Source of the DNA: Enterobacteria phage CUS-3
Sequence record: CP000711
DNA: 40,207 nt
Direction: 5' to 3' (one strand)
Below are positions 6,001-9,000 of the stretch, piece after piece. The first letter of the stretch is position 1. Each line of letters opens with the position of its first letter. Position numbers: made by a program.

Positions 6001-9000
6001 GGTGATCATCGCCTTAGCCTGTTTTTCTTTTGGCAGAGACTGACCGCGACTCATGACGAGTTGTTTAATGGCTTCCTGCTGTTCAGTGGTGATTTTACCC
6101 TGCAACGCCTTTTTAGCTTTGCGTGGGTTAACTACATGGCCTTTAGTCCAGTACTCGTAGAGCACATCGTCACACTCTTCCTGATACTGGATTACCTTGT
6201 CGCGGATTTCAGGGCGGACTTTGTTAGGACTGATGCTGTTCAACCAAGCTGCCAATTTTCGTAAAGCCATACAAATCATGGCTTGCACCCCACCGGCAGA
6301 AGGTATGGTGATTTCCACCATACCATTCGAGAATCGTTGAGAAATCTTCTTATGTTGAGATTTCCAGTCTAGCCCCATTCCCTCAACGATAGGTTTCATT
6401 GGGGTATACGGTTCGCCGTTGTGATTGACAACATAAAGCTCTGCGCCGTGGAATGGTACATTGATAGTAGATACTGCTGTTGCTATACTTTTCATGTCGT
6501 TAATTCCTATGCGTGGTTTTACGATACCGAAGCCCTGACTGTTCCCGCAGTTGGGGCTTCAACTTTCTGCTCTATCAGTTATATCTTTCCCTTCGTATAC
6601 TTCACCTATATTGCTAATGCTGGCAGAACATCCAAGATGCTTGTATCTTATGATGTCCAACACGCAGTCACTACACAGCATCCGACCTGTTTCTTTAGAG
6701 TAAATGTATGTTTGATCAGCGTCTGATTCGCTAATGCCGCAGAAACAACATTCTTTACTCATACCATCACCCCCTCTCTCTTCAAGCTGTCCAGCACCCG
6801 TTTAATTACTTCTGCGCTAAACGATCGACACTCTTCCTTTGCTTTCTCTTCAAGGATTTTTTCTAACTTCTCTGGCATACGCAGTGTTTTTACCTTCATT
6901 GCATCCTCCGCTGTATGTGGTACGCATACATAGTATTTAGGTACGCATTGATAGTCAATAGACACCTACATATCCTGTGGTAAAAAATTATTCAGGGTGT
7001 GCCGATGTCTGATCGTAAGTACAAAAACCCTCAAGTGAATCTGAGGCTTCCTGTAGAGATAAAGGAACGTCTTATTGAACTGGCTGAGGCTAATTCTCGT
7101 TCATTAAATGCTGAGATGGTCGCTGCACTTGAAGCATGGACCGAAAAAAATAAACACATTCAAGCACTAGACCTTGCAACTATAGCATCACGATTGATAG
7201 ATCTTGAACATGATGTTGAGAAGTTGAAATGCATGTATGGCAACAATAAAGACGAAAGTTAGAGATACTAACTTGGAGTGATGGCATGGCTAGAGATGAT
7301 CCGCACTTTAACTTCCGTATGCCTTTGGAAGTAAGAGAAAAATTGAAATTAAGAGCCGAGGCTAACGGAAGGTCAATGAACTCTGAGTTATTACAAATCG
7401 TTCAGGATGCGCTATCAAAACCATCACCGATTGCAGGTTACCGTGACGAAGCAGAACGTATGGCTGATCAGCAAGCAGAAATTGTTAAGAAGATGGTGTT
7501 TGAAACCCTGAAAAAAATGTACGAGACCAGATAGGTCAATGTTTGTTCGTTGATATAAAATAACAAGGTATACATTGTGATTGAGATAGGCGTTATGGCC
7601 ATCCTGAATCAAGAGCCAGGAAAAATTGAAAACGTTTTTTCTGACATATCAACATCTATCGAGCGTTCAATTTCAGACTTTGATCGCAGTCATAGCGGCT
7701 CTTTGTCTAAAAAACAGGCTTCTGAAGCTCTTAGCAAGATCTACTGCGTTATGTCACCTGTAGAGGAAGTTTGCAAAAAGTACATTACATTCATTGACAT
7801 ATTAAGTAATGGTACAGAAGAAGATATTTCCTCACTTAATATTCAACATGACGATGTAGATATGTTGAACGATCAGATATCTAAGCTTGATTATGGTATC
7901 GCGAAACTGTTGTATACCTTCTTCATCGCTGAGAACAGCGATGCGTGGAAGCCCCATATGTCAACTCTTACAACAATGAAAAACCACTCAATCAATACTT
8001 TTATAGAATACAAAAGGCTAACAATGGGGCTTGTGACGCTAGCAATGCAGCACATACCACTATCATATGCTGAACCTGAAGAGTTCACTGAAGAAGAGTT
8101 GGCTTCCTTCAAGAAATCAGTTGAAGATTCACATAAAAGATTTGGCATGGAAGCACCAAAATGGAAAACCGCATAAGCATTGTTGTAGATGCAGCGGCTG
8201 GACCATTAGAACAATACTTTGCGAAGGCTCTTGCAAACTACAAAAACAGAGGCACCGTTTCAGCTTATCTTGGTAAGATTGGTGGGTTTGAGAGAAACCA
8301 TCACGCCGTCTTATCGGGAATTTACAAGTCGCACATCAGGATCCCTGGAGTAGATGATCCTTGGTTAAGAACAACGCCAATACATCGTAGAGTTAGCGAT
8401 AACTTTTTGATATTTGCGGTACACAACACATATCCAATTCATATCCAGATCATTGCTATCATTAAACCTGATGGTCATGAGAAGGTAAAAAAACTATTGC
8501 CAGCCATCATTGATATAACTGAAAAAAGATTCCAATCTCTAAATGAGAGGGAGCTTAACTCGTTGATTTCATACAAATAAAATATCAACTAAGGGGGTTG
8601 GTGTGTATACAACAGTTATCGCGATAGCTATCGCACTCATTGTGGTTCAGTACCAACTGGCATCTTTAAAACAAAAGATATCTGACCTCAAGACTGAGAA
8701 CGAAGCACTTAAAAACTCAATAAAAGATGAGAAGAACAAACTATCATTCACTATATCTGATATTGAGCAATCCATTGAAATTATTGAGAATAATATTAAC
8801 AGATTAAAAAAAGAAGATATTCATGAAATCAATGACAATATCAAGGATTTGAAATCTTGGCTTAGGAATGTAGGACAAATCGCCACATCAACACGAGATA
8901 AGCTCAATACATCCATGGATGATTAATTACTCCTGTGCCATTCCGCTTAGCGACGCTACAATGCCAGCCCTCGCTAAGCGATTGAACTCTTCGTTTCCAA

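Follow-up and report, generated by a model that had tools for sequence, protein, structure and literature searches.

Organization of the locus

The sequence analyzed here, hereafter the window, is a stretch of 40,207 nucleotides (nt) from Enterobacteria phage CUS-3 (sequence record CP000711) and is a P22-like prophage of uropathogenic Escherichia coli. Directly behind its maintenance repressor gene mnt lie three co-oriented open reading frames (ORFs; 7577-8926, plus strand), of which the first two, ORF A and ORF B, probably form a mobile toxin-antitoxin module. ORF A (7577-8176, +) starts with GTG and codes for a candidate antitoxin of 199 amino acids (aa). ORF B (8161-8580, +) starts with ATG and codes for a YafO-family protein of 139 aa, a candidate mRNA-endonuclease toxin, whereas ORF C (8603-8926, +; GTG start, 107 aa) is a member of the hkcB gene family. 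Direct reading of the sequence places a 16-nt overlap between A and B, from the ATG of B to the TAA of A (8161-8176, +; ATGGAAAACCGCATAA), and B and C are 22 nt apart. The initial annotation of this DNA, made from the sequence alone, had described three tightly packed ORFs of which the first two overlap by 16 nt, and the ORF call agrees with it. The same three coding sequences are called in the PGAP annotation of strain UTI89, which, like other extraintestinal pathogenic E. coli strains, is 100% identical to the window across this stretch.

A gene-16-type ejection gene (8927-11086) follows in convergent orientation, its stop codon abutting that of ORF C (8926|8927). In P22, the equivalent slot has the order mnt, orf59a, sieA, likewise convergent with gene 16, and the locus was thus rightly called sieA-equivalent. 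It is also AT-rich, as had been suspected: the GC content of the 7577-8926 region is 37.6% (A 38.5%, B 39.5%, C 33.0%), the window as a whole having 46.9% and the neighbouring gene-16 homologue 48.7%.

ORF B, a divergent YafO-family protein

The likeness of B to the YafO toxins, first noted from the sequence alone, holds in a profile search: B matches Pfam PF13957 (YafO_toxin) with E=3.2e-11 and 43.6 bits, above the cut-off of 25, over positions 2-98 of the 101 in the profile. Alignment of a B-clade profile with YafO of E. coli K-12 using hhalign gave a probability of 91.8% (E=7.5e-7, 96 columns, ~20% identity), and pairwise BLASTP between B and K-12 YafO recovered an IAIxKPxxH patch only. In the hhalign alignment, residues H58, R77, D80, K102-P103 and H106 of B stand opposite identical residues of K-12 YafO and, K102 excepted, these positions are invariant within the B clade. 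RefSeq gives B in UTI89 the label ‘type II toxin-antitoxin system YafO family toxin’. From these sequence comparisons, B is a member of a divergent YafO subclade and not an orthologue of K-12 YafO. The YafO family is small, with about 1,000 members (PMC11980606), and a sequence search of the PDB found no YafO relative of solved structure.

ORF A, a rare protein of predicted helical structure

No Pfam, NCBIfam or PADLOC family is matched by ORF A, and its family profile is unrelated to YafN, the antitoxin of the K-12 system (hhalign probability 0.2%). AF2 models A (pLDDT 79.7) as a bundle of long helices, for which Foldseek retrieved nothing usable, either from the PDB (best E=0.07, TM <0.45, to MukF and designed helical bundles) or from the BFVD viral models (best E=0.11). 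Searches of the PDB with profiles or sequences of A, B and a further family, B′, introduced below, likewise found no relatives. The initial description of an upstream partner of no recognizable family, unrelated in sequence to YafN, is therefore borne out. A is also very rare. It has 16 matches among 5.8 billion clustered proteins, and a search with the A-family profile found 18 clusters among 1.84 billion representatives. Among 185,579 species genomes it occurs in three, all of them Pectobacterium, and tblastn gave no match in 50,697 records of sequenced phages. The A family is previously undescribed, very rare, unannotated and, according to the model, all-helical.

Two features of A bear on its possible interactions. 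A is acidic (pI 5.0, net charge -11) and B basic (pI 9.65, net charge +6), the two being complementary in charge. In addition, residues 28-39 of A (IERSISDFDRSH) are invariant even in a homologue only 29% identical overall. The codons of this motif lie within a 58-nt patch (window 7656-7713) that is 82.8% identical to positions 1534-1591 of the sampled locus L008, the proteins being otherwise ~29% identical. We considered and rejected a nucleotide-level element: the ~10 mismatches are roughly the number to be expected from saturated third-codon positions, which points to a very strong protein-level constraint on the motif.

Linkage and distribution of the A-B pair

The 16-nt overlap of A and B recurs in Salmonella, Pectobacterium and Xenorhabdus. 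Together with a GGAAG sequence 7 nt upstream of the ATG of B, it suggests translational coupling. Pairs of the A+B type occur in ~15 independent contexts across Enterobacterales, and throughout these the partner either overlaps B, by 16 nt at most, or lies no more than 4 nt from it. In the Pectobacterium chromosome, A+B forms a stand-alone island flanked by an ABC-transporter operon and gcvP. Xenorhabdus has the pair at two separate chromosomal sites, and a P22-like prophage of Salmonella has it behind mnt; it further occurs in P22-like prophages of E. coli and in a related viral contig. A Providencia siphophage and Flyfo siphovirus Tbat2_3 have a pair of the same type behind the tape-measure gene, in a myophage contig and a Shigella phage-plasmid such a pair comes before the baseplate genes, and two lambdoid prophages, as well as an Enterobacter IncFIB plasmid, have one immediately behind a CI-type repressor. 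Others are located in a chromosome next to a PirA-like gene and on a Pantoea megaplasmid.

The initial annotation had regarded an upstream partner of this size as an unusual architecture. It is instead the rule in this YafO subclade: distant homologues of B (31-41% identical) have a protein of ~190-218 aa directly upstream in every sampled member. The A-superfamily profile also picks up partners that did not go into its construction (117, 158 and 77 bits), the Pantoea partner being the only sampled upstream partner that it does not detect. In the sampled locus L034, a YafO-type gene is cut to 78 aa (1243-1479) in one assembly while the A-like gene upstream is intact, a possible example of toxin erosion with retention of the partner.

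A survey of 5,426 complete E. coli genomes gave 44 with A and B, always together and at least 99% identical; 82 match some part of the stretch and 36 contain it in full, from A to C. The variable ‘ant moron’ of such prophages, that of UTI89 included, was diagrammed in 2008 without functional assignment (PMC2629481). The caveat that the cluster might prove to be a well-annotated conserved block of related prophages consequently holds in part: the pair is shared by those 44 genomes, B is annotated and the moron has been drawn (PMC2629481), but a role was never assigned to A.

Intact A+B orthologues exist in five genera. The window copies are 68, 66 and 42% identical to those of Salmonella, Pectobacterium and Xenorhabdus, respectively, for A, and 80, 75 and 53-57% for B, a pattern of co-divergence in which A evolves faster. 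With dN values of 0.15-0.25 and saturated dS, dN/dS is ~0.08 for A and B alike where it can be computed, and replacements have accumulated ~1.3-1.5 times faster in A than in B. On this comparative evidence, A and B are real genes under purifying selection and not chance ORFs.

A partner-specific tail and the B′ family

Three members of the A superfamily (P0016, P0027 and P0030) are not followed by a YafO-type gene but by a member of another family, which we call B′. In each case the B′ gene (L008 2065-2457, L015 889-1266 and L032 2333-2716) lies directly downstream of an A-superfamily member with a distinct tail. The B′ proteins are basic, 125-130 aa long and mutually homologous (47-50% identical to the L008 member), with the conserved motifs LPGRNK, LIQYAI, HYHxG, WTS..VHYQ and HPP. 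They have no similarity to YafO or to entries of Pfam, NCBIfam or the PDB. Their motif pattern had suggested to the eye a divergent YafO, an assignment that we set aside at this depth of comparison, hhalign giving 0.2% with both single sequence and profile and the Pfam and NCBIfam searches coming back empty. B′ is a candidate new toxin family.

Comparison of A-superfamily members according to their partners divides the protein into regions. A helical core with an AE...AW.PH motif is common to YafO-paired and B′-paired members. An N-terminal IERSxSDFDR motif is present in close YafO-paired and in B′-paired members and absent from distant YafO-paired ones. By contrast, the C-terminal ~30 residues co-vary with the type of partner: when the superfamily is aligned, the terminal sequence is SHK..G...PKW in YafO-paired members and P.WVKSGDDFVKWI in B′-paired ones, the tail of the window protein being SHKRFGMEAPKW. 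A tail that tracks the partner is what would be expected if it were the toxin-binding element, and this is the strongest in silico argument for an interaction between A and B.

Expression in the lysogen

The window mnt gene (7286..7534, +; 82 aa), which codes for the immI maintenance repressor, matches Pfam Arc (96 bits) and Repressor_Mnt (56 bits) and is ~85% identical at the nucleotide level to P22 mnt, with ORF A directly downstream. Upstream, the divergent control region of arc and mnt contains a promoter-like site, TTGATA-17-TATCCT (6948..6976, +), presumed to be Pmnt; its position agrees with the annotated Pmnt/Pant of epsilon34. Consensus scans found no terminator-like sites between mnt, A, B and C, in line with the initial placement of the genes downstream of mnt, and no promoter-like site in the 42-nt spacer between mnt and A. 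This spacer measures 42-45 nt in the sampled loci L008, L009, L030 and L031. As far as such scans can indicate, these features make it likely that A and B are co-transcribed with mnt in the lysogen.

In eight sampled loci the pair stands behind a lysogeny repressor, either mnt (the window, L009, L030, L031 and L008) or a CI-type gene (L016, L017 and L037). In the latter three (L016 2785-5058, L017 475-2291 and L037 1075-2905), an A-like gene and a YafO-type gene directly follow the CI-type repressor in the same orientation; the repressors of L016 and L017 have HTH_3 and Peptidase_S24 domains. Pairs behind CI-type repressors, and the HicA-type cassette that phage SEN22 carries in the P22-type slot (see below), fit an accessory role expressed in the lysogen.

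Interpretation of the A-B pair

We consider it reasonably probable that A and B are a type II toxin-antitoxin module, made up of a YafO-family toxin and an antitoxin of a new family and carried as a moron behind mnt. Tight coupling in a bicistronic pair that moves between unrelated contexts is what marks such systems, and it is seen here in the overlap, the ~15 contexts and the boundaries of homology described below. According to this model, the cassette would have entered the ‘ant moron’ slot of P22-type phages, which houses sieA in P22 itself, at a distance of 42 nt from the upstream mnt gene, and the mobile bicistronic unit would probably be transcribed with mnt from Pmnt and hence be expressed in the lysogen. 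B, as a divergent YafO-family toxin of the RelE/ParE superfamily, would arrest translation by cleaving mRNA, and A, as its cognate protein antitoxin, would most likely neutralize it by direct binding through the C-terminal tail, a proposal that charge complementarity, co-divergence and the co-variation of tail and partner support indirectly. The likely pay-off would be retention of the prophage, abortive infection directed at other phages, or the two combined, and a role in phage defence is plausible. We infer the toxicity of B, its neutralization by A, the structure of the transcript and the biological role from the evidence set out above.

Several observations weigh against this reading. B falls far below the cut-off of the NCBIfam YafO equivalog NF007377 (13.9 bits versus 153), so that the activity of K-12 YafO is not confidently transferable to it. 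Its AF2 model is of moderate quality (pLDDT 71) and has no structural match in the PDB, the BECR fold being the one expected for the YafO superfamily (PMC11980606). At 199 aa, A is larger than typical type II antitoxins, and 17 members of its superfamily gave no helix-turn-helix, ribbon-helix-helix, AbrB or Phd-type match that would indicate a DNA-binding domain. Such domains, which serve autoregulation, are common in type II antitoxins, although not universal. The charge complementarity of A and B is weaker in distant pairs, in which some B proteins have a pI of 5.5-6.7. The defence models of PADLOC-DB v2.0 do not match B and, among the same 17 A-superfamily members, yield a single 14.8-bit match to PtuB1, in one member. 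All promoter and terminator calls, moreover, come from consensus scans. Finally, our literature search turned up nothing published about the A family, these accessions or a link of YafO with phage defence; a Photorhabdus survey of toxin-antitoxin systems names a YafO class, and the paper on ‘Gally’ of strain LF82 concerns a different P22-like prophage and does not mention YafO.

A bolder version of the toxin-antitoxin model, which we put forward tentatively, is that A founds a new modular superfamily of antitoxins or sensor-antitoxins, in which a common helical core bears an exchangeable C-terminal tail able to neutralize at least two unrelated toxin families, the YafO clade and B′, and the ultra-conserved N-terminal IERSxSDFDR motif acts as trigger or degron, and that temperate phages repeatedly capture such pairs behind mnt or cI as abortive-infection modules expressed in the lysogen.

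Rather unlikely is the idea that A is no simple antitoxin but a sensor or adaptor in a two-component prophage defence system, which would, for example, sense a phage protein through IERSISDFDRSH and release or activate the B nuclease. The large size of A and its lack of a DNA-binding domain suit such a function, as does the repeated placement of the pair downstream of mnt or of a CI-type repressor (where lambda has rexAB), both of them lysogen-expressed slots. A 13-residue motif that is invariant between ~29% identical proteins, independently of the partner, also points to a second conserved interaction of A. However, the distant YafO-paired proteins P0035, P0037 and P0038 lack the motif, so the relationship between A and B does not require it; no PADLOC model is matched; and the stand-alone chromosomal islands of Pectobacterium and Xenorhabdus resemble ordinary toxin-antitoxin loci. 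The sensor idea overlaps with the toxin-antitoxin model and does not exclude it.

ORF C and the limits of the mobile unit

The initial annotation had suggested that all three genes could be one toxin-antitoxin or abortive-infection module. C is co-oriented with A and B, lies 22 nt behind B with no terminator-like site in between, is AT-rich as they are, and is found together with them in 36 E. coli genomes. Despite this, the genes come apart. An hkcB-type gene occurs without A+B in HK620, epsilon34, SEN22 and 611R6 (C is 55% identical to the hkcB-family protein of HK620, 97% to gp14 of epsilon34 and 92.5% to that of SEN22), and ~38 E. coli genomes match part of the stretch but have no A+B. Conversely, C does not accompany A+B in Salmonella, Pectobacterium, Xenorhabdus, STEC383 or any of the other sampled contexts. 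The breaks in DNA homology tell the same story: between the window and the Pectobacterium island it covers 7594-8561 only, that is, the two coding sequences, and between the window and STEC383, which has a different gene downstream of B, it stops at 8605 and restarts at 8906, skipping C. C also has a strong ribosome-binding site (AAGGGGG) and a promoter-like site of its own in the consensus scan (TTAACT-17-TAAAAT, 8555-8583, +), which fits independent expression of C in phages whose upstream genes are on the other strand. Judging from these sequence comparisons, the mobile unit is A+B, and C is a resident gene of the ant moron, next to gene 16 and outside the module; the three-gene operon is accordingly very improbable.

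Other properties of C are as first described. Its N-terminus is hydrophobic (Kyte-Doolittle ~2.0-2.1 over the first ~21 residues) and it has many weak coiled-coil-type matches, in agreement with a membrane-anchored coiled coil. There are also weak matches of C to Rz-like spanin PHROGs. In P22, the position of C is taken by the inner-membrane exclusion protein SieA, to which C is unrelated in sequence. We rejected both C and A as relatives of SieA (BLASTP E=0.041 over 17 residues for C, E=1.9 for A), and a role of C in exclusion would be speculation.

Equally improbable is a B that survives as a YafO relic, orphaned or inactivated, or that is controlled by the ribbon-helix-helix protein Mnt, with A an unrelated moron gene: orphan YafO genes are on record for prophages (PMC6192338), B is only ~20% identical to K-12 YafO and Mnt weakly matches FitA-like antitoxin ribbon-helix-helix domains (33 bits), but B is intact and under purifying selection, the positions matching K-12 YafO are kept across its clade, unrelated genes would hardly show the linkage of A and B and the co-variation of the tail, and A+B occurs in Pectobacterium and Xenorhabdus without any ribbon-helix-helix gene. 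The islands of these two genera carry no other called gene next to A+B, and have no flanking DNA in common with the window, so that neither Mnt nor another small protein can be the conserved antitoxin. A hidden small antitoxin ORF upstream of A was also sought in the Pectobacterium island and rejected, only short unconserved ORFs being present and no flanking DNA being common with the window.

Immunity region and other cargo of the slot

The immI region is recognizable in the window from ant, sar, arc and two plus-strand genes of the Arc/Mnt type. The ant gene (5572-6495, -) is followed by the sar antisense RNA (6497-6564, +; Rfam RF00262, 84.6 bits), which is overlapped by the 3′ end of a cysteine-rich 67-aa ORF between arc and ant (6559-6762, -; phrog_7150, function unknown). 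In the records of P22 and epsilon34, arc adjoins ant with no annotated gene in between. The first of the two Arc/Mnt-type genes (6999..7262, +) codes for an 87-aa ribbon-helix-helix protein (Pfam Arc, E=3.4e-10) homologous to SEN22_18; the second is mnt. They are 32% identical to each other, and only the second has the Mnt C-terminal domain. The A+B-carrying prophages L009, L030 and L031 have one mnt each, without the 87-aa paralogue, and SEN22 has the 87-aa type only.

The interval between mnt and hkcB holds other cargo elsewhere. In SEN22 (L002 2857-3711), it is occupied by a HicA_toxin protein and a 217-aa DUF1902 protein on the opposite strand, and in epsilon34 (L003 2788-3207) by gp15, with a weak PEGA-domain match, also on the opposite strand. 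The HicA-type cassette resembles A+B in being a toxin-antitoxin-like pair between an mnt-like gene and hkcB, although its protein families are unrelated to A and B and its strand is the opposite one. From this case, the slot appears to collect toxin-antitoxin-like cassettes.

Comparison with known systems and significance

The closest known system is YafN-YafO of K-12, whose toxin (132 aa, versus 139 for B) belongs to Pfam PF13957 and is related to B at the profile level, and whose genes also have a tightly coupled antitoxin-then-toxin order. The two systems also differ: B is ~20% identical to its K-12 counterpart and below the equivalog cut-off, YafN has 97 aa and is dissimilar to the 199-aa, all-helical A, and the K-12 pair belongs to the SOS-regulated dinB-yafN-yafO-yafP operon, whereas A+B travels on mobile elements. 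Likeness to exclusion systems is one of position only. A+B occupies the slot of orf59a-sieA in P22, and the lambdoid A/B-related pairs come directly after the CI-type repressor, as does lambda rexAB, located downstream of the CI repressor (PMC2629481). No membrane segments are predicted in A or B, for which intracellular RNA cleavage, and not a block of DNA injection, is the proposed mechanism.

Panacea (PanA) and NetFlax are reportedly modular or ‘promiscuous’ families of antitoxins, which pair with toxins of several families. The A superfamily is comparable in having two unrelated downstream families, the YafO clade and B′, and a partner-specific element in one region, but A is unlike any known antitoxin domain in sequence or structure, and its 18 clusters have so far revealed two partner types.

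If the toxin-antitoxin model is confirmed, the YafO family would gain a second, unrelated type of antitoxin, which would explain the ‘orphan’ prophage YafO genes reported without a YafN partner (PMC6192338), and two PHROG families now marked as unknown would receive a function. The tail-swap pattern provides a testable prediction of where toxin specificity resides and points to B′ as an unannotated toxin-like family. Extraintestinal pathogenic E. coli such as UTI89 and APEC O18 are among the carriers of the cassette, and its presence there, in a superinfection-exclusion slot, could affect the phage susceptibility of clinically relevant strains. A module of this kind would be an incremental addition to a well-populated class and would bring no new principle; its interest would lie in the modular partner family, in the unannotated B′ proteins and in the recurrent capture of such pairs behind lysogeny repressors.

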